DNA of 40,141 nucleotides from a virus (IMGVR_UViG_3300033412_000035); one strand, 5' to 3'; counted from the stretch's first letter, positions 14,203 through 40,141 are shown. Numbers and translations are program-made. The notes: generated from the letters alone by a model not told the origin.

Positions 14203-14419
14203 CCAACTATCGTCGGGACCCGAAGTACCTCACCACCTGCGAGGTCTGCGGCCAGGGGATCGTGCCGTGGAATGGGGGTACCTCGTCGCCGTGTGCCGTC
14301 GCTCTCCGCTCGCCGGCCGAGGGGAGGGCTCCGGCGCCGAGCGCGTCTGCGGCCCACGGTGCGGCGCGTCGTACGCCGTGAAAGCCATACGAAGGCTCGA
14401 GGAGGAGACCAAGAGATGA
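14199..14419 (+). CDS. Zinc-ribbon protein split over two frames (needs a -1 shift or one extra G at 14274-14278)
   Basis: The 5' part, [26 protein letters not shown], starts by ATGA coupling at 14199. The 3' part, ...[46 protein letters not shown], ends by ATGA coupling with recT at 14416-14419 in the -1 frame. Confidence 0.5.
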
Positions 14420-23657: not shown

Positions 23658-24043
23658 CGGGGGTTCCTTCTGCCGAACACGTCGGCCTTGGGTTGTGCGA
23701 CCTCCGCCGCTCTTTGCTGGAGCGCGGCGTCGATCCGAACCTGCTCGGTGGCCAGGTTCCCGACCTTGACCGTGAGCGCCTTGAGGTCGCCCTGCATCTC
23801 GACCTGGGCCGCGCGGGTGGTCTCGACCTGGTCCGCGACCCCGCGCGCCTGCCAGATGACGGTGACGGCCGCGGCCACCATCGATCCAACCAGGCCCCAG
23901 ATGCGGAGGCGCAGGCTCGCGAACGTCCGCGCCCCGGTCAGGAGCTTGCCCTCGCACAGCGATACCCGGTACTCCATCACGTCCGGGCTACTGGCCAGTC
24001 GGCGCGGATCCGGGGGCGTAGCGTCGTCGAAGTCGGCGCTCAT
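23654..24043 (-). CDS. TM plus coiled-coil protein (129 aa), i-spanin-like architecture
   Basis: ATGA overlap at 24040-24043. TM segment IWGLVGSMVAAAVTVIW, then a Gln/Ala-rich helix. Confidence 0.45.
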   Translation of the reverse strand: MSADFDDATPPDPRRLASSPDVMEYRVSLCEGKLLTGARTFASLRLRIWGLVGSMVAAAVTVIWQARGVADQVETTRAAQVEMQGDLKALTVKVGNLATEQVRIDAALQQRAAEVAQPKADVFGRRNPR

Positions 24044-25062: not shown

Positions 25063-28000
25063 GAGACGACTCCGACGTAGAGCTCAGAGAGGGCGGTGAG
25101 CTGAGCTATCGAGGTCACGTCGCTGGTCTTGAGCTCGATCGATAGCCAGGTGCAGCCCGGGATGTCGGACATGACGATGTCGAGCGTCTGTTCGGTGAGC
25201 GCCGCGCCGGTTGCCGAGGTGGTGGTGAATTCGACCTGCCGGTAGGTACCCGGCGGCCAGGTGACCCCGGTCCGGCTCGAGCCACGCGGGTAGCCACGGC
25301 TCGAGGTGATCCGACAGGAGGCCGTCTTGCCTGCGGTCTGGCTGAAGAGCCAGGGCCGGATGTAGAGCTTGCGGCGGGCGTTCAGGTAGGGCGCTCCGCC
25401 GATGGGCACAGGATAGGCGCCCAGGAGCTCATAGCTCGTCGAGGTCGTGTTGAACGAGGTGTCCACGGTCCACGGCAGACTCACGGCCGACTTGAGCGAC
25501 ACCATGTGGTTGGCCATGAGGATGAGGTCGTGGACCAGGCCGGCATGGAGCGGCCGCCCGGCTGCGTAGTCGGCCGTCGGAATGAGCCGCGGTGCGGTAG
25601 TCGGGATCGAGCGGGTGAAGCCGAGGAGGTTGTCCGCCCCGTAGGCGTTCGGCAGCGCGAGCCCCTCGATGAGGTCGTCGGTCCCGGTCATGAACGCGCT
25701 GAGCTGCTGGCTCGCCTGGACTGCCGAATAGAGCTGGGGGACGACCCGATAACGCTTGGCCGTGTCGAACGTGGGTGACGTGAGCGTCGCGGTGAGCGTG
25801 AGAATGTGGTTGACCGTGTCGGGCGCGCTCGCGAGTACCCGGTCCCAGGCCAGGATGGATGTTGGGTCGGCCGGATCCACCTCCTCGATGCGCACCAGGT
25901 CGCCGGAAGCCCATCGCGTATCGTCCGTGGCATCCGACGAACGGCTGTAGTCATGGATGCGGATCTTGAGCTGCTTGGTGCTGCTCGAGTAGCCGGAGGT
26001 GAACGTGCCGGATGTGTAGGAGTAGTCAACCGATGCGCAGGGCGCGAGCGGGTAAACCCGATCCTCATCCACCAGCAGAAGCTGCACGGAGCCCGACAAC
26101 GATTCGCCCTCCTGCCCGAAGTTGATGGTCTTCGACAGGCAGATGCAGCCGCGGTTGGAGATGCCCTGCCGGCCCGAGACCGGGTCGCGAACGTCGTTGT
26201 CACTGAACGAGACGGTGTCGCCGGGCGCGATGTGAAAGAGCGTCGGGGCGATGGTCCGCTCGACCAGGCGCAGGGGTTTCGCGAAGTGCGGCATCGCCCG
26301 CTCGAGGAGCTGGCCGATTAGGTGCTGGACCGCGATCCCAGCCTTGGCCTGGTCGGAGCAGGCGGACGGAAGCTCGATGACGGCCTCGCGCGCGGTGCCG
26401 CCGTAGTCGGAGACCGACGACGGATCGCGGCAGGTGACCTCGTTCGCATAGGTCCCGTCCGGGCGCCGATTGAAGCGGACGGTGACGACGTTCCGCAGGT
26501 ACTCCTCGGTGACGCGCGCGCTCGCCCGGAGCATCCCCGGTTGCTCGGCCGGACCGGCCTTGTTGGTCTCGTCGAGCGTGTGCTCCGCGGTGAGCGGGTT
26601 TGGGCTCGGCAGCGTGACCAGCCGGTAGCCGCCATCCTTCCAGATGAGCCAGGCGAAGCGGAGCGCGAGCTCGGGGAGGATGTAATCGAGGAGCTTGGTC
26701 GGCTTGTCGATGACGATAAGCATCGACTCGGTCCGGCACTGCTGCTCGATGGCCTTGCACGAGTTGAAGAAGTCGGTTGAGAAGAGCGTTTCGGGGATAC
26801 CCGGGCAGCTCATGCCGAGCGGGAAGATGTCGTAGTCGGAGCTGTTGTTGCTGCGACCGTCGGTCGAGAGGAGCAGGCTCGAGAAGATGGTCGTGAACGA
26901 GCCAGACAGGATGACGACCTGGCGCACGGTGAAGACATCATCCGGGTCATCCACCGTTAGACCCACGTAGACATCGTTGCCCGACACGAAGCCGGCCACC
27001 CCGCCGGCGGCGCCGACGCCCGTGAGCTCGGTGTCGCTCGCCTTCTTGGCGAAGTGAAGGTGGCCGTTCCCTGCGATGATGAATCCCCAACTCTCGCCGG
27101 CCTGCGGGATGGCGTCGAAGGGGGCCGGCAGGAGCGACGGAATATCCACCCACTCGCCCTGCGTCTTTTCGAGGTCGATGGAGCAGCCGGCGGCCGAGTG
27201 CCCGATCTCGTAGAGTCCCTGGAAGGGCTTGACCCGGTACGGGGCGCCGCTGGACACGAAGGCGTATTCGGCCTTGTCGCCGCTATCGCGCACGACCCAG
27301 AGCGGCCGGCTATCGAACTCGTCGGTCAGCTCGTCATCGCTGCCGTAGCCGAGGAACAACATGGGAAATGCGTCCGTGCAGCCGAATATGAGCCAGCGCT
27401 GCTGGGACGTCGCGAACGTCGCGCCGATCTGGAGGCGCCGGCCGACGTCCATTTGCTTCAGGCCCACATGCCAATCGGCGTTGAGCCCGGCGGCGTTCGC
27501 GAGCCAGTTGTTGAGGGTCGAAAGAAACTCCTCGAGCGAGTAGTAGCCCTCCTGGACCTCGTCGGTGCTCCCGGGGGCGCCGGAGACCACGGTGAGCGTG
27601 GCGCTGGCGGACGAGACGTTCTCCTGAGCGTAGAACGCCTGGCCGGCGACCAGACGGATCCCGGGTTGGACGTAGCCTATCCACTGGTCCTTGAGGAGGG
27701 TGCAGTCGCGGATCTGCTTTCGCAGGTCCTCGCACTGGATGACGGTCGCGCCGAGTTCGCCCTCCGCCAGGCCGACGATGACCCCCGCGAACTCGAGCCG
27801 TGCCTGGCCGACGACATCCCAGACCCCGCCGACGACCCGGTGGCAGTAAAGCGCGACGTGCCGGCCGATCCAGGTCTGCGGCAGGTCAGTCACCTTCGAG
27901 GGCGACGAGACCGCGTAGTCGAAGTTGTCGGGGAAGGCGTGCGGCCGGGTGTAGGGACCTGCCTCGGCCTCGAAGGGCTCGAACGACTGGCTGTTGGTGA

Positions 28001-28448
28001 TGGTAAAGGTCGTGCCCGAGGCGGCCGACATCTCCATCCGCTTGGAACCGACGAAGATGGACTGGCCGGCGGTCGTCCAGCTCGAAGCGTCGCGCACGGT
28101 GAGCGTCCCGGTCCCGTCCGCGTTCGGCTGATAGAGGGCGCCTAGGTGCGTCTGCTTGGTCGGCTTGCTCTTCCAGACGGCGACGCCGAAGGTGTCGTTG
28201 GCGTCCGGCTGGATCTCGAACGTCAAGCTCGGGACGTCGAAGTCGGCCTGCCAGGGCGCGATGGACTCGCGCAGGCTGCCGCGGATCTTCAGGCCGGGCA
28301 GCGCGCGCGGCCAGGTTCCGCCGTAGGCGACCACGACCCGGTTGGGGTCGGCCGCGTCGCAGAGCACGTAGTCGTAGCCCTCGATGACGAGCGAGTAGCC
28401 GACCTGGACCGCCGCCTGCGTCGAGAGCGCTGTGCTCGTCGTGCCCAT
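25059..28448 (-). CDS. Large distal tail protein (Tal / central fibre-like, 1129 aa)
   Basis: Largest ORF in the genome. It follows the Dit-like gene after the tape measure. Positional call only. Confidence 0.6.
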   Translation of the reverse strand: MGTTSTALSTQAAVQVGYSLVIEGYDYVLCDAADPNRVVVAYGGTWPRALPGLKIRGSLRESIAPWQADFDVPSLTFEIQPDANDTFGVAVWKSKPTKQTHLGALYQPNADGTGTLTVRDASSWTTAGQSIFVGSKRMEMSAASGTTFTITNSQSFEPFEAEAGPYTRPHAFPDNFDYAVSSPSKVTDLPQTWIGRHVALYCHRVVGGVWDVVGQARLEFAGVIVGLAEGELGATVIQCEDLRKQIRDCTLLKDQWIGYVQPGIRLVAGQAFYAQENVSSASATLTVVSGAPGSTDEVQEGYYSLEEFLSTLNNWLANAAGLNADWHVGLKQMDVGRRLQIGATFATSQQRWLIFGCTDAFPMLFLGYGSDDELTDEFDSRPLWVVRDSGDKAEYAFVSSGAPYRVKPFQGLYEIGHSAAGCSIDLEKTQGEWVDIPSLLPAPFDAIPQAGESWGFIIAGNGHLHFAKKASDTELTGVGAAGGVAGFVSGNDVYVGLTVDDPDDVFTVRQVVILSGSFTTIFSSLLLSTDGRSNNSSDYDIFPLGMSCPGIPETLFSTDFFNSCKAIEQQCRTESMLIVIDKPTKLLDYILPELALRFAWLIWKDGGYRLVTLPSPNPLTAEHTLDETNKAGPAEQPGMLRASARVTEEYLRNVVTVRFNRRPDGTYANEVTCRDPSSVSDYGGTAREAVIELPSACSDQAKAGIAVQHLIGQLLERAMPHFAKPLRLVERTIAPTLFHIAPGDTVSFSDNDVRDPVSGRQGISNRGCICLSKTINFGQEGESLSGSVQLLLVDEDRVYPLAPCASVDYSYTSGTFTSGYSSSTKQLKIRIHDYSRSSDATDDTRWASGDLVRIEEVDPADPTSILAWDRVLASAPDTVNHILTLTATLTSPTFDTAKRYRVVPQLYSAVQASQQLSAFMTGTDDLIEGLALPNAYGADNLLGFTRSIPTTAPRLIPTADYAAGRPLHAGLVHDLILMANHMVSLKSAVSLPWTVDTSFNTTSTSYELLGAYPVPIGGAPYLNARRKLYIRPWLFSQTAGKTASCRITSSRGYPRGSSRTGVTWPPGTYRQVEFTTTSATGAALTEQTLDIVMSDIPGCTWLSIELKTSDVTSIAQLTALSELYVGVVS

Positions 28449-28451
28449 CGG

Positions 28452-29897
28452 CTAGAGCGTCCCGGCCTTGACCTCGACGGAGATCATCCACGCGGCCGCG
28501 GACGTGCCCCAGCTCGGATCGGCGACGAGCGCATTCGCCGCCGTGGCGACCTCAAGGGAGGCGTTCGTTGCTGTAGTTCCGACGTCAGCCTGCTCGGTGA
28601 AACCTATCCCTGGGGTCGCCGTTTGATTTGCCGCGGTGGCAACCGCGTAGAGATGGACGTTGTGAACGTCCTCGAATAGCGCAAGGGTGTTGGTCAGAGT
28701 CAGGACCGCCGAGCCGCTCGTAGTGACCGTTTGGACGATCGCCCCCGAGCCGTTCGTGCCGGATGTATCGACCCCGGAGAGCTCGATGAGCGCCCAGCAC
28801 CAGGAAAGATGCGACGTCGCGAAGGTAACCGTGATGGCACCGCTCGACGGCGACCCGCCGAGGGCGCGCCAGAGCGACAGCTTTCGCGTGCCGGTCCCGA
28901 CCGAGCCGACGTTGACCCAGGTCAAGCCGCATCCCGTAACCGAGGTCGGTACCTCGCCGAGTGTCGAGTGCGTGGCCTCAACGGCCAGGAGCTCGAGCCG
29001 GTTGGCTCCCGGGCTGACGCTCGCCGTCGCGAAGCTCGTGCCGTCCGTGGTCGAGCTCGAGCTCGTGAGGGTCGAGACGCCGATCGTCGCCCGCCCGACG
29101 CCCGAGCCGAGCCCCGCCGTCTCCGTGCCCGGGACCTGGATGAGGGGCGGGAGCTTGATGGCCCACATCCCGGTCCAGTTCTCTTGCATCTGGTTGGGCC
29201 GGAAGATGGAGGCGTCGGTCACCGCGTAGGTACCGAACGTCGTATCGTCGGAGGCGTCCGGGTACCAGCGAATCGGTCCGCTCGGGGTGCCCCACCCTGC
29301 CTCGCCGTAGACCCCGTCGAGCCAGAACTGCTCGAGCGACTGGTTGCCGGTCGTCTCGCTCGCGATCCAGGTCCGTTCGCGCCGGTTGGCCGGCCATCGG
29401 AGGTCGTCGAGCCGGACGCGGTGCTGCCCGTGGCGGGCGTAGACGTAGCCGGCGAAGTTTCCGACCGAGCGAAAGTCGCCCTCGGGGTAGCCGCGCCAGG
29501 TCCCGCCGCCGTTCAGGTTGGCGAATGGGCAGCTCGGCAGCCAGACCGACTTCATCGCCTTCTGCCCGACGTGGCTGGTCGCCGATCCCTCGTCCGCCGT
29601 GAACCCGAGGAGGTCGCGGAGGTCGGTCGAGATCCAGGTGATGAGCTTGGCGACGCCGAACGTGATGGTGACTACGCCGGTTCCGAACTCGCCGAGCGAC
29701 CCGGTGACCGTGCAGGTGGTCCCGGACGCGGTCGCGAACGCGGTCGCGACGGTGGCCAGGAAGTCGCTCGCCGTGGACCCGGTGCTCGACAGGTAGTAGG
29801 TGCCGGCCGCGATCGTGGCGGTGCCGGCGCCGACGGTCGCAGTCCAGCCGCCGGTCGGGACCGTGATCTGCGCCTCGAGCCGACCAAAGGTCCCCAT
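28452..29897 (-). CDS. Distal tail (Dit)-like protein with a C-terminal ~200-aa accessory module
   Basis: TGATG overlap with the tape measure stop. The C-terminal 199 aa are paralogous to the C-termini of the 33883-36093 and 36095-36817 products. Confidence 0.55.
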   Translation of the reverse strand: MGTFGRLEAQITVPTGGWTATVGAGTATIAAGTYYLSSTGSTASDFLATVATAFATASGTTCTVTGSLGEFGTGVVTITFGVAKLITWISTDLRDLLGFTADEGSATSHVGQKAMKSVWLPSCPFANLNGGGTWRGYPEGDFRSVGNFAGYVYARHGQHRVRLDDLRWPANRRERTWIASETTGNQSLEQFWLDGVYGEAGWGTPSGPIRWYPDASDDTTFGTYAVTDASIFRPNQMQENWTGMWAIKLPPLIQVPGTETAGLGSGVGRATIGVSTLTSSSSTTDGTSFATASVSPGANRLELLAVEATHSTLGEVPTSVTGCGLTWVNVGSVGTGTRKLSLWRALGGSPSSGAITVTFATSHLSWCWALIELSGVDTSGTNGSGAIVQTVTTSGSAVLTLTNTLALFEDVHNVHLYAVATAANQTATPGIGFTEQADVGTTATNASLEVATAANALVADPSWGTSAAAWMISVEVKAGTL

Positions 29898-31765
29898 CAG
29901 CGCCGCCCCCGGATCCGGTCGGTGTGGCCGCTATAGCTATTGCCCTTGCGGATGGCCTTGTAGATGAGCTGCTGCTGCTCGATGTCGGTGAGGCCGAAGA
30001 AGTCGCGGCCGAGCAAGATGACGGTCTGTTGCGTGCCGCCCTCGCCGCCCCGTCCGCCGCCTCCACCTCCACCGCCGAGGTGATAGCCAGCTCCCCCGCC
30101 GGAGCCGCCGCCGCCCGAGCCCCGGCTCGCGCTCGGGACCGAGCCAGCGCCGAGCGCGCGCGCGAGCAGGCCGAGCGCCACGGCTCCGGCGCTGGCCTCG
30201 GCGGCTGCGGCTCCGTACTGCGCGGCAGCGGCGAAGCCGGCCGGGTTTCCGAAGAGGCCCATGGCGAGAGCGCCAGCCGCCAGGACGCCGTCCTTGATGG
30301 CCTCGCCGGCGAGCTGGGCGGACCCCGAGAGCAGCGCGCTGGCCGCCATCTGCTTGAAGGCCTGGCTTGCCGATCCGGAGCCGGTGATCCAGGTCGCGAA
30401 GGCGCTGCCGGCCGCGTTCTGGATGCCGCGGAAGCCGATGACGATAGCGCTCATCTGCTCGGGCGAGCCGAAGATGGCCTCGAGCGCGTTGTGGACGCCC
30501 TGGAGCTGGAACTGGCGCTGCGCTTCGAGCGCCGCCTTGACGGACTCGTCCATCCCCGAGGTGAGACCGTGCATGTCGCGGAGAAACGCCCGGGTTGACT
30601 CGGCGTCGGCACTGATATCCCGGAAGCCGGACCGCTGCGACCTGTCCTGCTGATAGACGGAGGCGCCTGCCCGGTAGAGGTCGGCCAGGGCGCCCGGGAC
30701 CGCCGCCCCGACGTCGTAGGTGTTCCCGAAGTCGCGGAGGATGTCGCCGGGGGCGTTGGGATCGATGACCATCCCCGGCTTGCCCTTGGCGGAGAGCCGC
30801 TTGGCGAGCGCGACCCAGCCGAGCTGGGCTTTCGTGACGCCGGCGGCGAAGAGCTCCTGCACCGGACGCAGGAGCTGGTTCTCGTCCACGTGGAGCGAAG
30901 AGAGGTCGAAGTTGGTTGCCCCGTCCTGAGAGGGGGCGTTCTCAGCGCCCGGGCCCAGGAGGGGATGCTGCTTTCGGTAGGCCGCCTCGAGCCAGCCCGC
31001 CCTCTGCTCGTTGAAGGGCGTACCGAGATAGCTCACGGCATCGGCGAACGTGCCGACCAGCTTCGCCATGATCTCGAGCAACGGGGCCAGGCTGATGACG
31101 AGCTTTCCGGCCGCGCCCTTGAGGTCGTCGAAGGCGTTGTTCAGGCTCACGCCGGCGCGCCGGAAGTTGTCTCCGGCCATGGCCGTGTTTCCGCCGAGGC
31201 CCTTCCACAGGCCGTCGAGCTGCTTCAAGACCCCCTGCTCGTCGGTCGCCGTGATGCCGAATTCCTTGAGCGCCTTGGTATTGCCCTTGGCGATCGACTC
31301 GGTGAGCGCGTCGATGGTCGGCTTGAGCTCGACACCCATCGTCTTTTGCAGGGCGAGCGCGCCGTGGAGGACCTCTTCCATCTGCTCCTGGTTGAGCTTC
31401 CAGGTCCCGTGCATCGCCTTGCCGGCGAAGGCGAGGAGGTCGTCCTGCTCGACCAGGCCGGCGGTCGCGTCGGTCAGGCGGTCGATGTTGGCGCCGGCCG
31501 CTGCCGAGGCGAGGCGGAGATCCTCGAGGTAGGCGTTGGCGGCGACCTGCGCGCCCTTGTAGAGCGCGACCAGGCCGCCGACCGCCGCGCCGACCTTGAA
31601 CCAGGTCTTGACCTGGTCCTCGAGCGACGCGTTCTGCTTGTTAAGGTCGTCGAGCAGCGCCTTGGCCCGGTCGCGCTCGACGCCCTTCAGGCTCGCGATC
31701 GCGGCCTTGGCCTCCGCGGTCTCGGCGCGGAAGACGGTCAGGACCGTATTTTTGAAATCAGCCAT
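29897..31765 (-). CDS. Tape measure protein
   Basis: 622 aa, Ala/Leu/Gly-rich and helical, with internal hydrophobic stretches and a C-terminal Gly run (GSGGGGSGGGAGYHLGGGGGGGGRGG). It follows the chaperone pair. Confidence 0.7.
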   Translation of the reverse strand: MADFKNTVLTVFRAETAEAKAAIASLKGVERDRAKALLDDLNKQNASLEDQVKTWFKVGAAVGGLVALYKGAQVAANAYLEDLRLASAAAGANIDRLTDATAGLVEQDDLLAFAGKAMHGTWKLNQEQMEEVLHGALALQKTMGVELKPTIDALTESIAKGNTKALKEFGITATDEQGVLKQLDGLWKGLGGNTAMAGDNFRRAGVSLNNAFDDLKGAAGKLVISLAPLLEIMAKLVGTFADAVSYLGTPFNEQRAGWLEAAYRKQHPLLGPGAENAPSQDGATNFDLSSLHVDENQLLRPVQELFAAGVTKAQLGWVALAKRLSAKGKPGMVIDPNAPGDILRDFGNTYDVGAAVPGALADLYRAGASVYQQDRSQRSGFRDISADAESTRAFLRDMHGLTSGMDESVKAALEAQRQFQLQGVHNALEAIFGSPEQMSAIVIGFRGIQNAAGSAFATWITGSGSASQAFKQMAASALLSGSAQLAGEAIKDGVLAAGALAMGLFGNPAGFAAAAQYGAAAAEASAGAVALGLLARALGAGSVPSASRGSGGGGSGGGAGYHLGGGGGGGGRGGEGGTQQTVILLGRDFFGLTDIEQQQLIYKAIRKGNSYSGHTDRIRGRR

Positions 31766-32129
31766 CGCGGTCGCGGTTCATGCGGGCGGCCTGCATCTCG
31801 GAGACGGCGCAGGCTGCCACCTCGACGAGCTCGAGGAGGTGAGGGGAAGGTCGCTCCCGTCCGACGAAATGGTCGAGCTGCCCCTTGTCCCAGTGGAGGT
31901 GCGCCCGGAGCGCTTCCTGGGCGAGGGGGAGCTGGATGAGGTAGCCCGGGCAGGTGTCGGACTCAGGCCGGGGCGCGTCGCGCGGCAGCGGGTACTGACC
32001 GGGGTGCTGGGGTAGTCGAGGCAGGAATCCGCAATTCCATTCCTGATACCGGGCGCACTTCGCGCAGTCGAGGTATTCGGCCGCACCGGCGTGGCCCTTC
32101 GCCATGCCGTCGCGGCGAGCCTCGTACAC
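31758..32129 (-). CDS. Tail assembly chaperone T-like ORF / Cys-rich protein (123 aa)
   Basis: Lies between the G-like chaperone and the tape measure. Its frame is -1 relative to, and open across, the end of 32156-32611. Confidence 0.45.
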   Translation of the reverse strand: MYEARRDGMAKGHAGAAEYLDCAKCARYQEWNCGFLPRLPQHPGQYPLPRDAPRPESDTCPGYLIQLPLAQEALRAHLHWDKGQLDHFVGRERPSPHLLELVEVAACAVSEMQAARMNRDRDG

Positions 32130-32155
32130 GAAGGGTGCGATCCGGATGCCATCGA

Positions 32156-32611
32156 CTACCCCTTCCGAGGGCGCTGGGCGGCCCCTTCCGTCAGCTCGGG
32201 CAGGATGCCGGCGTCTTCGAGGAAGGCCATCTGCTCCTCGATGACCGCAGGCCAGCCGCGCCGCTCCGGGTCGGCCGCCCGCTTGATGTCGAGCTCGCCT
32301 CCGGCTGGGCCCTGGAAGCCGCGCACGCCGACCAGGGTCAGCGCCACCGCGTGGAGGCCGACCTGGAGGAGGCCGCCGTCCGAGCGGGCGAGCTGGTCGC
32401 CGAGCCAGGCGCGCTGCGTTGGCCGGAGCTGGCGGAAGCGCCAGACGGCCGGCTCGCCGCCACCCTCGCGCCTCGGGACCTGGCTGAAGTCGCCGGTCTC
32501 CTTCGCGCGCTCGTAGGCCTCCGCGAAGCCCTCAGCGGTCTGGTCGAGCGCCGGATCACCCCGGCTAATGAACTCGTAGTCACCCACGAGCGTCTGCGTC
32601 TTGAGCTGCAT
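32156..32611 (-). CDS. Tail assembly chaperone (gpG-like, 151 aa)
   Basis: GAGGGAGG precedes the ATG at 32611. Only the last 151 codons of track ORF 32156-33676 are used. The call rests on position. Confidence 0.55.
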   Translation of the reverse strand: MQLKTQTLVGDYEFISRGDPALDQTAEGFAEAYERAKETGDFSQVPRREGGGEPAVWRFRQLRPTQRAWLGDQLARSDGGLLQVGLHAVALTLVGVRGFQGPAGGELDIKRAADPERRGWPAVIEEQMAFLEDAGILPELTEGAAQRPRKG

Positions 32612-32622
32612 CGCGCCTCCCT

Positions 32623-33867
32623 CTACGCCATCGCGAGCCGCACCGGCGAGGCGGTGAGGTCGGTCGTGGTCGTCCCGCCGAGCTGGGCCTCGAAGGAGAC
32701 GCGCTCGCGGTTGTAGCCCTGGTGGTTGACCTGGATCGGAATCGCCTTGCAGATGGCCAGCCGCGGCCAGTACACGCCGAAACCGCGGCCGTCGGCGCAG
32801 GTCACGCTGTAGCAGGCGTGGTAGAAGACGCGCCCGGTGTTCTCGTCGGTGTCCGCGCGGGCGCGCCAGGTGTCGGGCCCGTCGTTGTCCACAGTGATAT
32901 CGAGCGTCGCCATGCCGGCCTTTCGTCGAGCAGCCTGGATAACCTGGCCCTCGGTGTTGCCGCCCGGCCCCATCAGCCCCTCGCCCGACCAGCCGAGGTC
33001 GAAGCCGATTTCGCGGAGCTTGCTCTCGCTCGAGCGGGTCACGGTGCCGACCGCGGCCCAGGCGAACGAGCCGTTGACGACCGGCGACGAGGCGTGGCGC
33101 TGCGGGACGGTCGCGCTCGGGAAGGTGGTCGAGGCGGTCACGACCGAGGAGACGCCGATCTCGATGGTCACCTCCGGGATCTGGCCCATCGACACGCCGC
33201 TGAACTGCGGGGCCGACAGCGGGAAGCAGCCGCGGAGGTCGTACTGGCCGTTCGAGGTGAGGACCCGGAGCCGGAAGGTGGTCGGGACCTCGAACTGGCT
33301 CGGGGTGAGGCAGTACGGGTAGATCATCTTGCCGGCGTAGAGGACGTCCCCGTTGTTCGGGGCGGCCGGCGCGGCCAGGAGGAGCGTGAGGTTGTTCGTC
33401 GAGTGGGCCGAGACCGGCAGGAACTGGCCGCCGACCCGGCCGTCGCCGATGGACCCGCCCCGGACCAGGGCGCCGGCGACGACGCCGCTCGCCGCGGTCG
33501 TGGTCGGGATGGTCGCCGTGCCGCCGGTGAAGGTCGTCCCGGTCGCCAGCGAGGAGGCGACGTTGCCGACGATCATCCCGAGGAAGGTCGCCAGGTCCGA
33601 GCTCGAGACCGCGCCGGCCTGGGTCGCGCCCATTCCGGTCATGCGCATCTTGAGCGTGACCTTCGCGCCGGTCCACGGCATCCGGACGTGCTGCGTCCCC
33701 TCCCAGGGCCGCTGCTTGACGAACGGGACCGGTTCCATGGCCCGCGAGCAGCCGGACAGGTCCACGGCGGTGATGAGGGGGAGCGCGGTGCCGAAGGTCG
33801 TCGAGACCTCGGCGAACGCAGCCTCCGTGTTGTACTGGACGTCTTGGAGTTCAGCGCTGTAGGTCAC
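32623..33867 (-). CDS. Putative major tail (tube) protein (414 aa)
   Basis: Directly upstream of the chaperone pair and tape measure. Positional call only. Confidence 0.45.
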   Translation of the reverse strand: MTYSAELQDVQYNTEAAFAEVSTTFGTALPLITAVDLSGCSRAMEPVPFVKQRPWEGTQHVRMPWTGAKVTLKMRMTGMGATQAGAVSSSDLATFLGMIVGNVASSLATGTTFTGGTATIPTTTAASGVVAGALVRGGSIGDGRVGGQFLPVSAHSTNNLTLLLAAPAAPNNGDVLYAGKMIYPYCLTPSQFEVPTTFRLRVLTSNGQYDLRGCFPLSAPQFSGVSMGQIPEVTIEIGVSSVVTASTTFPSATVPQRHASSPVVNGSFAWAAVGTVTRSSESKLREIGFDLGWSGEGLMGPGGNTEGQVIQAARRKAGMATLDITVDNDGPDTWRARADTDENTGRVFYHACYSVTCADGRGFGVYWPRLAICKAIPIQVNHQGYNRERVSFEAQLGGTTTTDLTASPVRLAMA

Positions 33868-33882
33868 AGTTCTTTCCTTGGC

Positions 33883-36093
33883 TCAGGCGGCCTTGATCTC
33901 GATGGACAGGAGGAGCGAGAGCGCCGACGTGCCCCAGGTCGGGTTGGCGGTCAGGGCATTGACCGCATCCGCCGTCTCGAGGGAGGCATTCGATAGCGTA
34001 ACCATCACGTCGCTGCGCTCCGTGAACCCAGTCGCCGGCGTCACGTCGCTTTGGTTGGCGGCCGTTGCGACCCCATAGGCGTGAACGTTGAAGGCATTCT
34101 CGAATGCCGCCAGGGTATGGCTCGCCCCAAGAGCGGCGGCTGTCACGGTCTTCTTGATCTGCTGGATGGCACCGCTGCCGTTCGTGCCGCTCGGATCGAT
34201 GTCCCGATAGGCCGCCACCGCCCAGCAGCACGACGTATGGCTGGTCGCATGGGTGATGGTCAGGGCGCCCATGATCGGCGAGCCGCCGCGCGCGCGCAGA
34301 AGCGTGATCCTGCGTGTCGGGTTGGTCGCCGGCAGCGTATCGACCTGCACCCAGGTCAGACCGGCGCCGGTCACGGTCGGGGCTTCAGCGGCGGTATTAT
34401 GGTTCGACTCCACCCAGATGAGGACCAGGTCGTTCGCAGTCGGCGTGATCGCCGCGGTCACGAAGGTCGTGCCGTCGGCGGTGGAGCTTCCGTCCGCGAG
34501 CTTCCCAATGATCGTGATTGGCGTCCGCGGCACCGCGGCGACGGTCACCGAGCGAGTCTTGCTGGAGCGCGCGCCGCCGCTATCGGTCGCCGTGAGCGTG
34601 ACGCTGTAGGTCCCATCCGCCGCGTAGGTGTGGTTCGGGTTCTGGGCCGTGTCGGTCCCGCCGTCGCCGAAGTCCCATGCCCAGGAAACGATGGTCCCGT
34701 CCGGGTCGGTGGACAGGTCCGTGCAGGTAATCCCGAGGCCGTGGCTGTCGAGAGAGAAGTCCGCCGTGGGCGGCTCGTTGGCCGGCGGGATGGCCATGTC
34801 GAAGCCGCGGTCGTATTCCAGCTCGAAGACGAGACGGAGAACGAAGCAGGCCGGCCGCTCGTCGATGTTGGTCGCGACCAGACGGGCGGCGTGGAGTCCG
34901 GTCCCCAGCCGATCGTAGTCGGCGTAGCCGCGCTCGCCGATCGCCGCCCGGATATCGTTGATGTCCCAGTCGATGAGGGTCTCGATGCGAACCCCGTAGC
35001 CGTCGATGAGCTTCGGATAGGCCACGAGGACGGTCTCGCTGTGGCGCACGAGATCCGTGTTCTGGTCGAGGTACTTCTCGTCCTGGTAGTCGAGACCGTG
35101 CACAATCTCGAAGCGACGCAGGGGGTCGATGGCCTGGTCGGCCCACGCAACGAATCCGCCGCCGCCCTCGGCGACGGGATCCCAGGGGCGGAACCGACCG
35201 AGCCCTGCGAGCTTCCTCGGCACCACGGCCCGGAGCGTCGTGACCTGCTGAGCGCGGATCCTCTCCCAGGTCGTCCCGCTGTCGGCGTAGCGCGCCGGCA
35301 TGAGGTCGGCCATGCGGTTGCCGAGCGTGATGAAGGAGTCGGCGTCGTAGTGCTGGACGCCGTCACGCAGCGCGAGATCGTCGGTCGGCGCGAGCGCCAC
35401 GCCTGGCACGAACTGGGCGACGCGTCGCTGGCGTTCGCGCGTGATGTCCGGCGACGTGAGGACGTCGGCCGGGCATAGCTCGTTGATGACGAACGGAACC
35501 GGCCCGTACTCCTGCCGGAACCTCGTGATGAACCATGCCAGCGCTCCGTAGTAGCCGCGCGCCACCGAATCGGAGGCGGAGTCGCCCTCGCCGTGAATCC
35601 AGAAGACGCCCGCGACCCGCGAGCCGGCCGGCAGCTCGGCCAGGCGGGCGTCGATGTACGTCGTCATGTACTCCCACAGGGAGTTGTCGGTGTCCGGCTC
35701 CCAGTACTGGTTGAGATTGGTCCCGCTCGTCGCCTCCTTGAGGAGCGCGATGTTGGTCCCGAACCGCTCGAGCAGCCGCCGTCCGGCCGATAGCTCGATA
35801 CCCATGGCGTTCCCGTAGGGGCCGACTTGGCTGCCCCATCCGGTCGAGACCTGGGCCGGGCCGCCCAAGAAATCCGTCGGGCACTCGCGCTCCTGGGCGT
35901 ACAGCAGGTCGTAGGGCGTCGCGTACCAGGCGTTGCCCGCCGACAGGTCCAGAGAGCTCGCGCCGCCGACCGCGTTGGACTGTCCCGCGATCAGGTAGAC
36001 GTCCAGCGGCCTGGTGCCGACGTCGGTCACGCGGTCACCGCCCGTGCAGGCTGCGAGGACAAGCAGCAACAGGAGTAGCGTCCGCGTCCGCAC
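33883..36093 (-). CDS. Signal-peptide/lipobox SASA-type carbohydrate acetylesterase + PKD domain + C-terminal accessory module (736 aa)
   Basis: MRTRTLLLLLLVLAAC (lipobox LAAC). LIAGQSNAVGG and VFWIHGEGDS are SASA/DUF303-type motifs. The PKD signature VSWAWDFGDGGTDTAQNPNHTYAADGTYSVTLTATDSGG is present. The last 201 aa are paralogous to the other two modules. Confidence 0.7.
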   Translation of the reverse strand: MRTRTLLLLLLVLAACTGGDRVTDVGTRPLDVYLIAGQSNAVGGASSLDLSAGNAWYATPYDLLYAQERECPTDFLGGPAQVSTGWGSQVGPYGNAMGIELSAGRRLLERFGTNIALLKEATSGTNLNQYWEPDTDNSLWEYMTTYIDARLAELPAGSRVAGVFWIHGEGDSASDSVARGYYGALAWFITRFRQEYGPVPFVINELCPADVLTSPDITRERQRRVAQFVPGVALAPTDDLALRDGVQHYDADSFITLGNRMADLMPARYADSGTTWERIRAQQVTTLRAVVPRKLAGLGRFRPWDPVAEGGGGFVAWADQAIDPLRRFEIVHGLDYQDEKYLDQNTDLVRHSETVLVAYPKLIDGYGVRIETLIDWDINDIRAAIGERGYADYDRLGTGLHAARLVATNIDERPACFVLRLVFELEYDRGFDMAIPPANEPPTADFSLDSHGLGITCTDLSTDPDGTIVSWAWDFGDGGTDTAQNPNHTYAADGTYSVTLTATDSGGARSSKTRSVTVAAVPRTPITIIGKLADGSSTADGTTFVTAAITPTANDLVLIWVESNHNTAAEAPTVTGAGLTWVQVDTLPATNPTRRITLLRARGGSPIMGALTITHATSHTSCCWAVAAYRDIDPSGTNGSGAIQQIKKTVTAAALGASHTLAAFENAFNVHAYGVATAANQSDVTPATGFTERSDVMVTLSNASLETADAVNALTANPTWGTSALSLLLSIEIKAA

Positions 36094-36094
36094 A

Positions 36095-36817
36095 TCAGCC
36101 CGCCTTCACCTCGACGGCCACCCAGATGGACGCCGAGGAGGTCGTCCAGCTGGGGTCGGCGCTGTTGTCGTTCACGGCATCGGCCGTCTCTAGCCCGCGG
36201 GATGGCAACGTATGCGAGACGTCTCCGCGCTCTTGGAAGCCAGTCGCTGGCGTCGTCGCCTCGCTGGCGGCGTGCGACACGCCGTAGGCGTGGACGTTGT
36301 TGGAATGCTCGAAGGCAGAGAGCGCGATGGTACAGGTCGTGTTCGCCGAGGCCGAGTTGGCCGTGTTTTGCACGATCGCGCCGCTACCGTTGGTTCCGCT
36401 CGTATCGACGTTCCGGTACTCGACCAGCGACCAGTGGCATCCGGTGGTCGCGTCGCCGGCGCCGAAGGCGATAGCGATCGTCCCAGGGCTCGGAGCGCTC
36501 CCCATGGCCCGATAGAGCACGATGAGCGCGCTCGTTCCCGCGGCCTTCCGGTTCACCTCGACCCAGGTCAGGCCGTTGCCGGTGATGCTCGTCGGGCCGC
36601 TCACCGTCGTGGCCGTCTGCACGACCCAGAGCAACTGGAGCGCGTTAGCCGTCGGCGTGACAGACGCCGTCGTGTAGCTGTTCTGATCGACGTTAGACTC
36701 GCCGGTCGTCAGATGCGCTGGAACGATCGTGGCCCGCCCCTGTCGCGCCGATGCGAACGTGGCCAGCCCAACCGGGTCGCCCCGTGACAGCCAGTCATCG
36801 AGTCCGGTCCGGTTCAC
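36095..36817 (-). CDS. Stand-alone copy of the tail accessory module (240 aa)
   Basis: The GTG overlaps the upstream stop (GTGA). Residues about 42-240 align with the C-termini of the Dit-like and esterase proteins (GLTWV, DTSGTNGSGAIVQ, NVHAYGV, VEVKAG). Confidence 0.65.
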   Translation of the reverse strand: MNRTGLDDWLSRGDPVGLATFASARQGRATIVPAHLTTGESNVDQNSYTTASVTPTANALQLLWVVQTATTVSGPTSITGNGLTWVEVNRKAAGTSALIVLYRAMGSAPSPGTIAIAFGAGDATTGCHWSLVEYRNVDTSGTNGSGAIVQNTANSASANTTCTIALSAFEHSNNVHAYGVSHAASEATTPATGFQERGDVSHTLPSRGLETADAVNDNSADPSWTTSSASIWVAVEVKAG

Positions 36818-37113
36818 GCCGGATCGAGCCTCGCGAGGGAGCAGTCGCCGGCCGTGGTCTGCTGGATGAAGTGAACGAATGCGTTCGTGGTCCCCGAGAC
36901 GTCCGGGTTAGCGAGCGGGATAACCATCCCGGCCTTGACGAAGATGTTGTTGGCCGTGTCGGCGGCGGCGGCTCCCCCGGTGACCGTGACCTTGATCCAG
37001 CAGTCCTGTTCGCAGGTGAAGAGATAGGTCTTGCCGTTATCCATCGGGTTCGTGAACTTCTGCGACGTCCCGCTGGTGGTGCCAACCTGCGTTGATGTGA
37101 TGGCGTAGGGCAC
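36814..37113 (-). CDS. Hypothetical small beta-rich protein (99 aa)
   Basis: GGAGGTGA precedes the GTG at 37113. Confidence 0.55.
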   Translation of the reverse strand: MPYAITSTQVGTTSGTSQKFTNPMDNGKTYLFTCEQDCWIKVTVTGGAAAADTANNIFVKAGMVIPLANPDVSGTTNAFVHFIQQTTAGDCSLARLDPA

Positions 37114-37116
37114 AAA

Positions 37117-38058
37117 TCACCTCCGAAAGATGGGAACGGCCGGGATCACGCCCCCGGCGCCGGTTGCATCGCTGGCGATCGGGACCTTCGGACCGGTCCG
37201 GAAGACCTTCCCCATGAACGCCCCGTACTGTTTCTCGGCGTCGTCCAGCGCAGCGGTGTCGCCGCGGCCGGCGAGCAGACTCATGCGCGCCAGGACGCAA
37301 CCGAATCGGAGGAGCGTGGCTCGATTGACCGCGTCCTGGCCGCGCACCCGGTCGTCGTCGAGGTCGATATCGACCAGGTCCCACCGGAACTGCTCGTAGG
37401 CCTCTTCGAGCAGCCGCCGCCCCTCGTCGCCCTGGTGGAGACCCGGCAGGCGCTGCCGATAGCCCGGGTACATCGCCTCGACGTCGGCCGGGAGGAGCGT
37501 ATGCCCCTTCGGGTAGCGGACGAGGTCGAAGTCCGAGTCGTGGACGTACGTGACCCCGCCGACTACGTAGACCCAACGGACGCGGTAGCCGGGGAATGCG
37601 TCCTGGTCGTCGGTAATCTTGCTCTTGTCCGCGACCCAGGTGGACGAGAGGCCGATGGTGAGGCGGCAGCCCTGGAAGGTGGCGCCGGCGGCGTAGTCGT
37701 TGGCCAGCGGGTCGCGTGCGGTCACCTGCGTCGAGGTCACCGCCTCGACCTCGACGATCTCCGTCTGGCCGCCCGCGTTCGTGACGAGGTACTGGCGGCC
37801 GACGACAATCCCGGTCGTCGAGGTGAGCGTCAGGAGCCGCGGGTTGGTCTGGCTGAGGCCGCTTGCGACGCTGACCGTCGTGTTGACCGAGTCGATGGCC
37901 GCGGTTCCGGTGGTTGCGCTCTCCGTCTGGGCGTCGTCCGCGGCGCCCATCTGATAGACGGTCACGCCCGTCACCGAGCCGGCCTGCCCCTCGGTCGCGT
38001 CCCAGATCAGGCTCTGACCGGTGACCCCGAAGATGATGCTCTGCGACCGACGGCTCAT
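37117..38058 (-). CDS. Hypothetical head-tail region protein (313 aa)
   Basis: The ATG at 38058 overlaps the upstream stop (ATGA). Confidence 0.55.
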   Translation of the reverse strand: MSRRSQSIIFGVTGQSLIWDATEGQAGSVTGVTVYQMGAADDAQTESATTGTAAIDSVNTTVSVASGLSQTNPRLLTLTSTTGIVVGRQYLVTNAGGQTEIVEVEAVTSTQVTARDPLANDYAAGATFQGCRLTIGLSSTWVADKSKITDDQDAFPGYRVRWVYVVGGVTYVHDSDFDLVRYPKGHTLLPADVEAMYPGYRQRLPGLHQGDEGRRLLEEAYEQFRWDLVDIDLDDDRVRGQDAVNRATLLRFGCVLARMSLLAGRGDTAALDDAEKQYGAFMGKVFRTGPKVPIASDATGAGGVIPAVPIFRR

Positions 38059-38633
38059 TTCACCCACCACGGGCCAAAGCGCCCGGTCGAGCGGTCGCAG
38101 ATGTCTTCGATCTTCCGCCGAAGGACTCGCTGCTGGTCGTCCAGCCGGAGCCCGGCGTATTCGCCCTTGCCCCGCTGGTAGTCCTGGAACGTCAGGATGA
38201 AGTCACGCGCCAGGTCGCCGCCCTCGTAGTCGATTTCACGGCTGGGCCGGAACATGCTCTTGGGTTTGACGAGCTGCCCGAGACGGTTCCAGGCCGCCTG
38301 CCACTTCGCGTCCATGCGGCGGAGCGGGGTATCGAGCAGACGGTCCTTCTTGGGCGCCTCCTGCGCGGGGATCGGGCGACGCCAGAACTTCGCTCCGGTC
38401 TCCTGGGCCATGTCCGCGGCCCGGTCGTCGCTGCGGAAGCGCTCGTGCGCGGCCGGCGCCTCGTCCTTGACGGGGGCCGGCTTCGCCTCGCGCAGCACGG
38501 CGTCCGCCTGCGCAAGGTCCTGGTTGACGATGCGCTCGAGCGCGCGCGAGTCCACCTCCGCCCCATGGGAGCGGACCGCCTTGGAGTAGTCCTCCATCAG
38601 CGTGCCCTTCACCCAGTGCGGATCGGCGGTCAC
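38055..38633 (-). CDS. Hypothetical protein (192 aa)
   Basis: The GTG at 38633 overlaps the upstream stop (GTGA). The 5' part of track ORF 38055-39203 was rejected. Confidence 0.45.
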   Translation of the reverse strand: MTADPHWVKGTLMEDYSKAVRSHGAEVDSRALERIVNQDLAQADAVLREAKPAPVKDEAPAAHERFRSDDRAADMAQETGAKFWRRPIPAQEAPKKDRLLDTPLRRMDAKWQAAWNRLGQLVKPKSMFRPSREIDYEGGDLARDFILTFQDYQRGKGEYAGLRLDDQQRVLRRKIEDICDRSTGRFGPWWVK

Positions 38634-39163
38634 TTCGCGTCCTTGTCCTTGCCCTTGGTCCCCTGCGTCATCGCGCGCAGGAGCTCCTGGTGATGGCGCT
38701 CGCGCTGCTCGGCGTCCTTCTCGCCCTGCGCCTTGTAGCGCTCGGCTCGCTCGGCCTCGACGACGCCATGACGCCCGCGCCGCACAGCCACCTCGGCATG
38801 GACGTGCCGGCAGCCCTTGCGGATGTCGTAGGAGCCAGGCTCGCAGGGCTTGCCGTCGCGCACCGTGCCGTCCAGCGACTCGCTCATGAGCTGGCCGGAG
38901 AGCATCAGCGCGAGCGGACAGGTATCGACCGGGAACCAGCCCTGGCCGAGCTTCACGGCCATGATCTGGTTGGCATAGTTGTCCGGGACCACGATGGAGG
39001 CCGCGGTGACGATCGGGACCCGGCACATGTTCCCCTGCGGATCGACCATGTGGCGATGCCGCATCCCCGGGTACTTCTCGACCCGCTTCTCGCCGTCCAC
39101 AAAGATCGTCCGCCGCGGCGGCGACCAGGTGGAGGCATCCATGATGTTGCTCTTGACGTTCAT
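38630..39163 (-). CDS. Hypothetical protein (177 aa)
   Basis: The ATG at 39163 (MNVKSNIMDAS) has GGAAGGGG upstream. The ATG at 39178 has no RBS and abuts the hairpin. Confidence 0.55.
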   Translation of the reverse strand: MNVKSNIMDASTWSPPRRTIFVDGEKRVEKYPGMRHRHMVDPQGNMCRVPIVTAASIVVPDNYANQIMAVKLGQGWFPVDTCPLALMLSGQLMSESLDGTVRDGKPCEPGSYDIRKGCRHVHAEVAVRRGRHGVVEAERAERYKAQGEKDAEQRERHHQELLRAMTQGTKGKDKDAK

Positions 39164-39180
39164 CTCGGCCCCTTCCATGA

Positions 39181-39212
39181 GGCGGGGAGGCCCGGACTGG
39201 CACCTCCCCGCC
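39181..39212 (-). terminator. GC-rich stem-loop immediately after the capsid gene (attenuator or mRNA-stabiliser candidate)
   Basis: GGCGGGGAGG-N12-CCTCCCCGCC: a perfect 10-bp stem starting 10 nt past the capsid stop, with no U tract. Confidence 0.4.
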
Positions 39213-39221
39213 GTGCTTCGA

Positions 39222-40141
39222 TCAGGCGTCGGTCACGATCTTGGTGTGGGCGGCGTCGAAGATTTCGCCCACGCCAGCGCGCATCGACGCGACGTACTCG
39301 GTGGCGCGCAGCGAGGCGTCCCGCTGGGTCTCGAGGCGGAACATGCGCTTCCAGACGATGCCCAGAGCCGCCATCGGGTCGTTGCCCGGGCCCGAGTGGA
39401 CCAGGCAGTCACCGACCACGTCGGCGCCCGCGTTGGCGGTGTCGGTCAGGCCCGCCGACCAGACCGGGTAGCCGCGGAAGAACAGCACCAGGCCATTGGT
39501 CATGCCGTTGTTCGGGCCAATGTTGGCGCCGAGGATCCGGTCGGTCGCCGTGGCATAGGTCGCGACCGAGGTGCTGGTCGCGGTGAGCGCGCCTTCGAGG
39601 TCGTTGACCTGCTGCTCGTCGAGCACGTAGGTCACGCCGTCCGGCGCGCGCACGCCGCGGGTGCGGATGCCGACCTGGGCCGCGAGCATCTGCGCGACGG
39701 TCAGATCCACGCCCGTGCTGCCGACACTGTTGGAGGCGTTCGCGAAGGTCGCCGCGACGTCGTCCTCGAGCGCGGTCATCAGGATCCGGGTCGAGTTGCC
39801 CAGCACGAGGCGGAGCCAGTCGATCCCGTCGATCGAATCCTCGTAGACGTTGTCGGTGATGGTCACCATGACCCCGTACTCCGAGGCGGTGAGCGTCACC
39901 TTGTTGGTCGAGAGCTGGGTGTTGCCGAGGTCGGTCGCCTCCGTGGCGTTGAACTCGGTGTCCACGCCGGTACCGCCGTCGCCGACGGTGCCCATGTTCG
40001 AGGCGAGCGACCAGATGTCGGTCGCGTTCGAGGCATTGCCGACGAGCGAGAACTCGCGCAGGAGCGGAGTTGCCACGACCCAGTCGTGGGCGTAGTCCAT
40101 CATCGTCGGCGCGATGATGGAGCTGTAGTAGACGTCGTTCG
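39222..40141 (-). CDS. Major capsid protein (HK97-fold type), 5' end continues at 154-1
   Basis: 315 aa in total. It follows the scaffold gene. The Thr/Ala/Gly-rich composition and the layout (...TLTASEYGVMVTITDN...) are typical of phage major capsid proteins. Call rests on position and general resemblance. Confidence 0.7.
   Translation of the reverse strand, partial: NDVYYSSIIAPTMMDYAHDWVVATPLLREFSLVGNASNATDIWSLASNMGTVGDGGTGVDTEFNATEATDLGNTQLSTNKVTLTASEYGVMVTITDNVYEDSIDGIDWLRLVLGNSTRILMTALEDDVAATFANASNSVGSTGVDLTVAQMLAAQVGIRTRGVRAPDGVTYVLDEQQVNDLEGALTATSTSVATYATATDRILGANIGPNNGMTNGLVLFFRGYPVWSAGLTDTANAGADVVGDCLVHSGPGNDPMAALGIVWKRMFRLETQRDASLRATEYVASMRAGVGEIFDAAHTKIVTDA
40016..40141. repeat. 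Terminal overlap, right copy (identical to 1-126)
   Basis: Same 126 nt as the window start. It lies inside the capsid gene, so it looks like an assembly or circularisation overlap rather than a packaging repeat. Confidence 0.95.

Follow-up and report, generated by a model that had tools for sequence, protein, structure and literature searches.

What does a phage gain by placing the same domain on three different proteins? This question is raised by IMGVR_UViG_3300033412_000035, a viral genome of 40,141 nucleotides (nt), which was analyzed over its whole length and is called the window here. A module of about 215 residues is present in a 481-amino-acid (aa) protein at the Dit position, in a 736-aa esterase composite, and in a stand-alone protein of 240 aa. 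The three carrier open reading frames (ORFs) are all on the minus strand (Table 1). The reading favored here, at a probability of roughly 0.55, is that it is an extracellular adhesion module, probably glycan-binding.

Three copies of one module and its exchange between scaffolds

In BLASTP comparisons of the full proteins, each pair of carriers shares a single strong common segment: 54% identity over 208 aa between the 481-aa and 736-aa proteins (E 2e-60), 50% over 215 aa between the 481-aa and 240-aa proteins (E 5e-52), and 44% over 207 aa between the 736-aa and 240-aa proteins (E 4e-47). The original prediction, made by reading the sequence, had proposed that three segments align along their whole length. 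They do align end to end, and the similarity is overwhelmingly significant by BLASTP. The mean column identity of the three-way alignment is 70%, and it contains the blocks listed in that prediction: TASVxP, GLTWV, RAxGxxP, DxSGTNGSGAIxQ, NVHxY, GFxE, PxWxTS, and E(V/I)KA. The copies are designated A (481-aa protein), B (736-aa protein), and C (240-aa protein). The family profile finds copy A at residues 276–491 of the stop-to-stop ORF (hmmsearch, E 4e-83). The window contains exactly three copies; when each module was searched against the whole window by tblastn, the next match had an E value of 0.034.

The segments and their C-terminal ends are as first described, whereas the starts are not: the homology begins about 15 residues further upstream, at a common first strand (GRATI/TPITI). 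At the DNA level, copies A and B can be aligned over a single stretch of 229 nt (66% identity), and copies B and C over one of 37 nt. Because the DNA can be aligned only over such short stretches, the copies are considered to be old, in agreement with the divergence noticed at the outset.

Five uncultured relatives of the window are available: L002 (farmland soil), L163 and L164 (one NCBI metagenome assembly), L162 (a fragment), and L117, the contig NZ_DASUNI010000071.1, which is binned with a metagenome-assembled genome (MAG) of Microbacterium sp. The stand-alone and Dit-position copies are kept in four or five related phages, and the third copy is unique to the window. The identities of the module and of the N-terminal scaffold that bears it at the Dit position do not go together. 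Between L002 and L164, the scaffolds are 67% identical and the modules 90%; between L163 and L164, the values are 74% and 59%. The window shows 54–56% identity to the other relatives in the scaffold and 43–45% in the module. In a neighbor-joining tree with 200 bootstraps, the Dit-borne modules of L002, L163, and L164 form one clade (98%). The Dit-borne module of the window is outside that clade and pairs with the esterase-borne copy B at 72%. The stand-alone copies fall into two pairs, the window with L163 (100%) and L002 with L164 (98%), which are not each other's closest relatives. The discordance of these identities and trees indicates that the module has been exchanged as a cassette at the linker. 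Copy B arose in the window lineage from the same stock as its Dit-borne copy.

The genes of L002 (15200–16642) and L164 (6462–7907) deserve a separate remark. Their similar modules (90% identity) on clearly different scaffolds suggest that the module was transferred recently, or else that it is under strong purifying selection. A general homogenization of copies within a genome was considered and rejected: only copies A and B of the window pair with each other, and in the other genomes the stand-alone copies and the Dit-borne copies belong to distinct lineages. A stand-alone gene and a 271-aa gene in L167 were considered as a split Dit-module pair and likewise rejected, since the 271-aa protein has no match to the scaffold profile.

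A large family of probably extracellular modules

An exhaustive HMMER search of 1.84 billion representatives, clustered at 50% identity, found at least 7,559 clusters at E ≤ 1e-3, of which 2,710 reach E ≤ 1e-30. Architectures were counted in the 120 top representatives, among which multi-copy proteins are overrepresented. Here, two copies are present in 54 proteins and three copies in 17, and 20 proteins are tandem modules and nothing else; tandem arrays of 2–4 copies occur in the family. The module is internal in 22 representatives and stands alone in 27. These architectures, together with the swapping described above, show that the module is an autonomous mobile domain.

The contexts of the module are extracellular. 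P0121 (685 aa) and P0130 (464 aa) are lipoproteins composed of three and two tandem modules, respectively, with nothing else. SusE/SusF-type surface lipoproteins are tandem beta-sandwich binding domains, and P0121 and P0130 are analogous to them by architecture only. Signal peptides are found on many carriers, including some stand-alone members. In P0156 and P0123, the module is the C-terminal tip of a Big_1/Invasin_D3 stalk. The Rhs proteins P0122, P0133, and P0145 contain 2–3 tandem modules inside the RHS region, with TcdB/SpvB parts and Sec signal peptides, and RHS carriers have Ntox33/44 toxin tips. Metallophos is a further partner domain among the representatives. On viral contigs, the partner domains are F5/8-type-C with DUF4874/DUF4832, Laminin_G_3, GDPD, and FG-GAP. 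The family is seen in Gemmatimonadales (many), Acidobacteriota, phyla of the candidate phyla radiation (CPR), Nitrospiraceae, Geobacter, Streptomyces, and Microbacterium.

Phage genomes have the stand-alone gene at one of two places: in the interval that separates head from tail genes, as in the window lineage and in a Streptomyces prophage, or behind the genes for baseplate and fiber. In a myovirus-like contig, the module gene directly follows baseplate genes and a 782-aa fiber-like gene. A search of phage records with the family consensus found one metagenomic podovirus only. Its divergent family member (L165, 5836–6744; GenBank MW202733.1, UOF81219.1) is encoded after an Ig-like (group 1) protein and lacks the DTSGTNGSGA loop.

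When the three carriers and 20 neighboring proteins were scanned, no Pfam-A or NCBIfam model matched the module. Its weak match is phrog_38872 (function unknown), which is matched by 24 of 68 family members; PHROGs annotated as minor tail protein are matched by two members. The AlphaFold2 model of the whole 240-aa protein, built on a 68-sequence alignment, is all-beta with 13 beta-strands (pLDDT 93.6, pTM 0.87). Among the predicted viral structures of BFVD, Foldseek found 66 matches at E < 1e-3 with TM 0.6–0.8, which include "minor tail proteins" of Mycobacterium and Gordonia phages at 13–19% identity. The weak matches in PDB are cupins and viral jelly-rolls (TM ≤ 0.36). Thus, by sequence (Pfam, NCBIfam) and by fold (Foldseek against PDB), the module lies outside the catalogued families of carbohydrate-binding modules (CBMs) and lectins. 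Intramolecular chaperones and trimerization domains of tail spikes and fibers have an obligatory C-terminal position. No match to Peptidase_S74 or another such family was found in Pfam, PHROG, or NCBIfam, and the module is also seen N-terminally, internally, in tandem, and alone.

The interpretation as a binding module is based on the tandem arrays, the module-only lipoproteins, the tips of Ig-like stalks, the fusions to envelope enzymes and lectin-type domains, the esterase-PKD-module layout, the cassette exchange, the flexible linkers, and the relatives among tail proteins. As is typical of the non-catalytic CBMs, the module is appended to carbohydrate-active enzymes and similar partners (SASA/PKD, GDPD, DUF4874/4832 with F5/8-C, and LamG), and it occurs in tandem. 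Of the glycan-binding or adhesion role proposed originally, the signature of an extracellular binding module is found across the family, while a match to a known CBM or lectin fold is not. The module would be an independently folding all-beta domain whose ligand is most probably a cell-envelope glycopolymer. In the Dit-position protein, it would hang on a flexible Gly/Ser/Thr linker, and if this protein is hexameric like Dit, six copies could ring the tail tip. The stand-alone protein may dock to the particle by its short conserved N-terminal peptide. In the composite protein, the module would keep the O-acetyl-esterase attached to the polysaccharide that it acts on. Through many contacts, each weak and reversible, virions would be concentrated and oriented at the host wall, or the enzyme would be tethered to it. 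A cassette that is swapped at the linker independently of the scaffolds would be expected of a host-range determinant.

Another explanation starts from the position of the module. It is N-terminal in 38 and C-terminal in 13 of the 120 top representatives, and the N-terminus is the usual virion-docking position in phage fibers and spikes. The module could thus be a virion-docking or hetero-oligomerization domain, with the Dit-borne copies recruiting the stand-alone and esterase proteins and with variable domains riding on the anchor. About 25 of 79 viral loci show such an anchor-plus-variable-tip layout, in which the module is followed by variable C-terminal parts (GDPD, F5/8-C with DUF4832, LamG). 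The residues conserved across very different host phyla would fit a conserved protein partner better than diverse glycans, and the sharing of one module by three proteins of one phage is also in line with co-assembly. However, Rhs toxins, Big_1 adhesins, and module-only lipoproteins, all of which have signal peptides, would have no use for a virion socket. Many stand-alone members are the bare module without any cargo. In the window, in L117, and in the Big_1 proteins, the module is C-terminal and distal, and AlphaFold2 gives a confident monomeric globule without a partner. Carrier genes were counted in 82 other loci, each limited to about 10 kb on either side: none has three and just three have two, so co-assembly cannot be the general role. 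A docking domain is therefore judged unlikely.

The conserved residues invite comparison with enzymes. At least 89% of 208 diverse copies retain the polar set T50, T84, R103, Q150, N174, and E236, together with W85. These polar residues are of active-site type, and the module adjoins other envelope-active enzymes; it could accordingly be a new beta-sandwich hydrolase, lyase, or esterase acting on a cell-envelope polymer. The member from MW202733.1 is even labeled "putative transglutaminase", an automated and unverified label which is treated as unsupported here. There is only one conserved carboxylate, and none of the 30 most conserved positions is a His, Tyr, or Cys. The loop motif that stands out most, G[TS]NG[ST]G, is found in only 75 of the 208 copies and is missing from about two thirds of them. 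It is also absent from the divergent podovirus member, which argues against a catalytic role for that loop. Tandem arrays of 2–4 full copies and module-only proteins are typical of binding domains, not of catalytic domains. No enzyme model of Pfam or NCBIfam and no beta-sandwich fold of glycoside hydrolases, polysaccharide lyases, or peptidases was matched. Besides, its fusion partners include genuine catalytic domains, relative to which the module occupies the usual place of a CBM. An enzymatic function thus seems very improbable. The conserved loops beta2-3, beta4-5, beta6-7, and beta8-9 should sit at one end of the sandwich, because of the strand alternation.

Several points weigh against the adhesion reading itself. 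Foldseek found no match in PDB at E < 0.01 (best E 0.018, TM ≤ 0.36), and profile searches of PDB sequences with the module returned nothing credible. The conserved polar set would fit a structural network just as well as a universal ligand site or a catalytic site. The excess of N-terminal over C-terminal positions fits docking, as described above, and many stand-alone members lack any additional peptide by which they could be attached to a particle. At the Dit position, the matches of the scaffold to tail-tube-fold proteins of tail tips and baseplates are not statistically significant (E 0.47–5, TM 0.2–0.5, about 130 columns). The lipoprotein signal on the 736-aa protein makes its display on the virion uncertain. 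No member of the family has been characterized experimentally.

The three carriers

The carrier at the Dit position is encoded in the order 622 aa (Gly-rich, at the tape-measure position), 481 aa, 1129 aa, and 340 aa, which is kept in L002, L163, L164, and L117. Its scaffold has 168 homologues. The best 120 of them are 191–304 aa long, and nearly all of these are 235–304 aa, the size of the scaffold; the module-bearing form of about 480 aa is therefore a derived minority. This form is present in all five relatives in which the Dit-position gene is seen. In an AlphaFold2 model of the scaffold alone, pLDDT is 92.3; the linker is at pLDDT 53–67. The top Foldseek matches of the scaffold are from lambda (8k35_L), T1 (9l9p_H), TP901-1 (4v96_AV), DT57C (8hqz_H), PVC/AFP, and GTA. 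Pfam Dit models have no match in the 481-aa protein. The name "Dit-like", used in the original prediction, agrees with the gene order and is weakly backed by a tail-tube-like fold hint, at best E 0.47. The analogy with "evolved" Dit proteins is loose, since the module is added behind the C-terminal end of the scaffold, where the linker has low confidence, and not inserted in a galectin-like domain.

L117 has, besides the Dit-borne module, a fourth kind of carrier (the two loci are at 3577–5097 and 9389–11632). This is an FG-GAP protein with a length of about 670 aa; the module forms its C-terminal part, and its gene comes after that of the 340-aa homologue.

The 240-aa protein has a short peptide in front of its module. 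The pattern ..W[LI]..GDP.ALA.FAS.KGGRA.I in this peptide is conserved in a subgroup of stand-alone homologues, as seen in the alignment and by BLASTP to P0007 and P0010.

The 736-aa protein is a composite. Its esterase domain matches SASA with E 6.4e-21 (75.4 bits against a cutoff of 24.8), and a GQSN block with the nucleophile Ser is at residues 37–40, within IAGQSNAVGG (35–44). The PKD linker is matched by PKD_4 (E 4.4e-20) and PKD (E 1.1e-14), both above the Pfam gathering score. Between the two domains is a complete homologue of a 160-aa protein of L002 (47.5% identity, E 6.5e-45 by tblastn). The profile of this 157–160-aa protein matches in L002, L163, L164, and L162. In L002, L163, and L164, it is a separate, signal-less gene just upstream of the gene for the protein of about 414 aa. 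The 160-aa part has no match in Pfam, PHROG, or PDB, and a protein homologue search with the segment returned none.

A variable gene slot is flanked by the genes for the stand-alone module and the 157-aa protein. In L163 (871–1854), this slot encodes a pectate-lyase-like right-handed beta-helix (Pect-lyase_RHGA_epim, PF12708, 38.5 bits against a cutoff of 27). The slot protein of L164 (1270–2295) has a weak Beta_helix match, the slot of L002 is empty (between 10720 and 10717), and that of the window holds the esterase. These contents indicate that the slot accommodates varying enzymes with folds of the glycan-depolymerase type. The slot enzyme of the window has been joined in frame to the gene that follows, and the start codon of the latter was replaced: at the junction, around position 35280, GAC-AGC is found for ATG-AGC.

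The original prediction had the module displayed at three positions, and for the 736-aa carrier this is uncertain: a textbook lipoprotein signal peptide is present at its start. A positively charged n-region, a hydrophobic h-region, and the lipobox pattern [LVI][ASTVI][GAS]C are seen by inspection only (M-R-T-R-T, LLLLLLVL, L-A-A-C16). The start itself is well placed. The GTG codon is 1 nt past the stop of the 240-aa gene, GAAGG is 10 nt upstream, and the GC content at third codon positions over the first 30 codons is 0.87. The protein could therefore be a lipoprotein esterase that is anchored in the membrane and alters or destroys the receptor glycan of the infected or lysogenic cell, for superinfection exclusion or progeny release, with the module targeting the enzyme. 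This is possible, though doubtful. It would suit a temperate phage with an integrase, other family members are lipoproteins or secreted, and the order of esterase, PKD, and C-terminal module is the layout of a secreted carbohydrate-active enzyme. On the other hand, the polypeptide holds, in frame, the genome's only copy of the conserved 157–160-aa protein, which in all relatives is a signal-less gene in the virion operon. The 736-aa gene is in the middle of the late structural operon and apparently translationally coupled to the upstream gene, and the same slot in relatives encodes signal-less beta-helix enzymes.

Internal starts for a signal-less product of the 160-aa part, PKD, and the module were considered at M261 and M265 and rejected, as neither has a Shine-Dalgarno sequence. 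The protein may be either an exported receptor-editing esterase outside the virion, or the product of an additional downstream start, such as the GTG at codon 22, or a protein with an inefficient signal. It is this routing that decides whether the module is displayed at three positions.

Table 1. Coordinates of the module copies, their carriers, and other genes in the window
Feature	Position	Strand	Description
Module copy A	28455..29096	-	Residues 268-481, C-terminus of 481-aa protein; BLASTP
Module copy B	33886..34524	-	Residues ~524-736, C-terminus of 736-aa protein; BLASTP, hmmsearch E 2.4e-76
Module copy C	36098..36739	-	Residues 27-240 of stand-alone 240-aa protein; BLASTP
481-aa protein	28452-29897	-	Directly after tape-measure gene
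Scaffold and Gly/Ser/Thr-rich linker	29097..29897	-	Residues 1 to ~255 (scaffold) and ~256-267 (linker); between 622-aa and 1129-aa genes
736-aa protein	33883-36093	-	Signal peptide, SASA esterase, 160-aa homologue, PKD, module
PKD (Ig-like) linker domain	34540..34773	-	Residues 441-518
Embedded homologue of 157-160-aa protein	34801..35280	-	Residues 272-431; tblastn, four-way alignment
SASA/SGNH-type carbohydrate O-acetyl-esterase domain	35299..36006	-	Residues 30-265; Pfam PF03629
Predicted lipoprotein signal peptide	36046..36093	-	M-RTRT-LLLLLLVL-AAC, Cys16; read from sequence
240-aa protein	36095-36817	-	Module plus short N-terminal peptide
N-terminal peptide	36740..36817	-	~26 residues, predicted disordered, pLDDT 57-75; candidate docking peptide
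Phg_2220_C protein	10729-11730	-	
RecT	14272-15204	+	
Tyrosine integrase	17994-19004	+	
Amidase_2 endolysin	21450-22307	+	

The phage and comparison with known systems

An exact terminal direct repeat of 126 bp (1–126 and 40016–40141) and a major-capsid gene that spans the window ends show that the window was assembled as a circle and that the genome, at about 40.0 kb, is complete. The phage is siphovirus-like and, based on the integrase, RecT, and the Amidase_2 endolysin, temperate. No tRNA genes are present in the window. The late operon is at 24040–40103 on the minus strand, and the cumulative GC skew rises steadily from about 24 kb, where this operon begins. The late order is capsid, 182, 189, 317, and 99 aa, the 240-aa, 736-aa, and 414-aa proteins, two small proteins, the 622-aa and 481-aa proteins, and 1129 and 340 aa. 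Two of the three carrier genes belong to the head-to-tail joining region and not to the tail tip, which modifies the earlier description of the carriers as tail-region proteins. The capsid is a weak match to phrog_544 (E 5e-6), and the 414-aa protein is, by position only, presumed to be the major tail protein. The other late structural proteins, around 15 in number with capsid, esterase, and PKD excepted, have no match in Pfam, PHROGs, NCBIfam, or PDB sequences, save the weak phrog_38872 match of the module. Sequence and profile searches of PDB with the scaffold and the 160-, 414-, and 1129-aa proteins returned nothing credible.

In 50,697 phage records, no match was found by megablast with 9 kb or by tblastn with the 240-, 1129-, and 553-aa proteins; at the level of such comparisons, no cultured or annotated phage appears to be related to the window lineage. 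Related loci with the 414-aa protein number none in IMG/VR, and one 1.3-kb contig in the metagenome set. L117 encodes homologues of the 414-aa protein (50% identity), the tape measure (54%), and the 1129-aa protein (42%). The host is possibly an actinobacterium: the sole hint, which is not proof, is the binning of L117, and the GC content of 68% fits.

Accessory binding modules common to several virion proteins, including a long form of Dit, are already known. In the lactococcal 936 (Skunavirus) phages, CBMs on the neck, the tail tube, and the evolved Dit bind host cells (Hayes et al. 2019, Viruses 11:631, PMC6669499). Tail cores have tube, Dit, and hub at 6:6:3, with a hexameric Dit (PMC13252515). 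The window resembles the 936 phages in that accessory beta-sandwich modules would decorate several presumed virion proteins, at the neck and at the tail tip, and in that the Dit-position family has short "classical" and longer module-bearing forms. In both, modules are re-used as "bricks". Triple carriage is rare in both: all three decorations occur together in 1 of 113 936 phages (PMC6669499), and three carrier genes in 0 of the 82 other loci here. The 936 modules have recognized CBM or BppA-like folds and demonstrated binding to carbohydrate or host, and their Dit CBM is inserted in the galectin domain. In contrast, the window uses one unnamed module at all positions, which matches no solved fold and is appended C-terminally.

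Modular carbohydrate-active enzymes show the order of catalytic domain, Ig-like (PKD/Fn3) linker, and C-terminal CBM, and the 736-aa protein has the same order. It differs in the 160-aa phage protein between esterase and PKD, and in that its terminal module is not a catalogued CBM. The "minor tail proteins" of actinobacteriophages, such as the Mycobacterium phages Gaia, Hawkeye, Shauna1, and Tonenili, have a similar predicted fold and are encoded by tail-region genes. Their Foldseek matches are at E 8e-9 to 1e-4, TM 0.6–0.7, and 13–19% identity, they were not found by tblastn at E ≤ 1e-3 in the 50,697 phage records, and they are themselves uncharacterized.

What is new here is an undescribed, very large family with no solved fold, and its unusual threefold use, including a composite esterase protein. 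If the module were merely structural or a docking part, the locus would represent ordinary mosaicism of phage proteins. The esterase fusion is a concrete puzzle of how a phage routes one polypeptide, and the discordant histories of module and scaffold are a clean natural example of cassette exchange of a domain at a defined linker.

It can be speculated further that the module founds a new, very large family of domains that bind cell-envelope glycopolymers, with no solved fold, serving as a plug-in targeting cassette in phages, Rhs/Tc-type toxins, invasin-like adhesins, and lipoproteins. In the phage, it would couple the esterase and the tail tip to the same host polymer, and the esterase would exist in virion and lipoprotein forms. 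This extended view is rather unlikely to hold in full. If it is true, the phage would be an analogue, in a bacterial virus, of the combined receptor-binding and receptor-destroying systems. If the binding role alone is true, the module would provide an annotation handle for thousands of "hypothetical" phage tail proteins, Rhs toxins, and adhesins, and would be a candidate for a new CBM family with an unsolved fold. It would also mark the host-range cassette in an entirely uncultured phage lineage.

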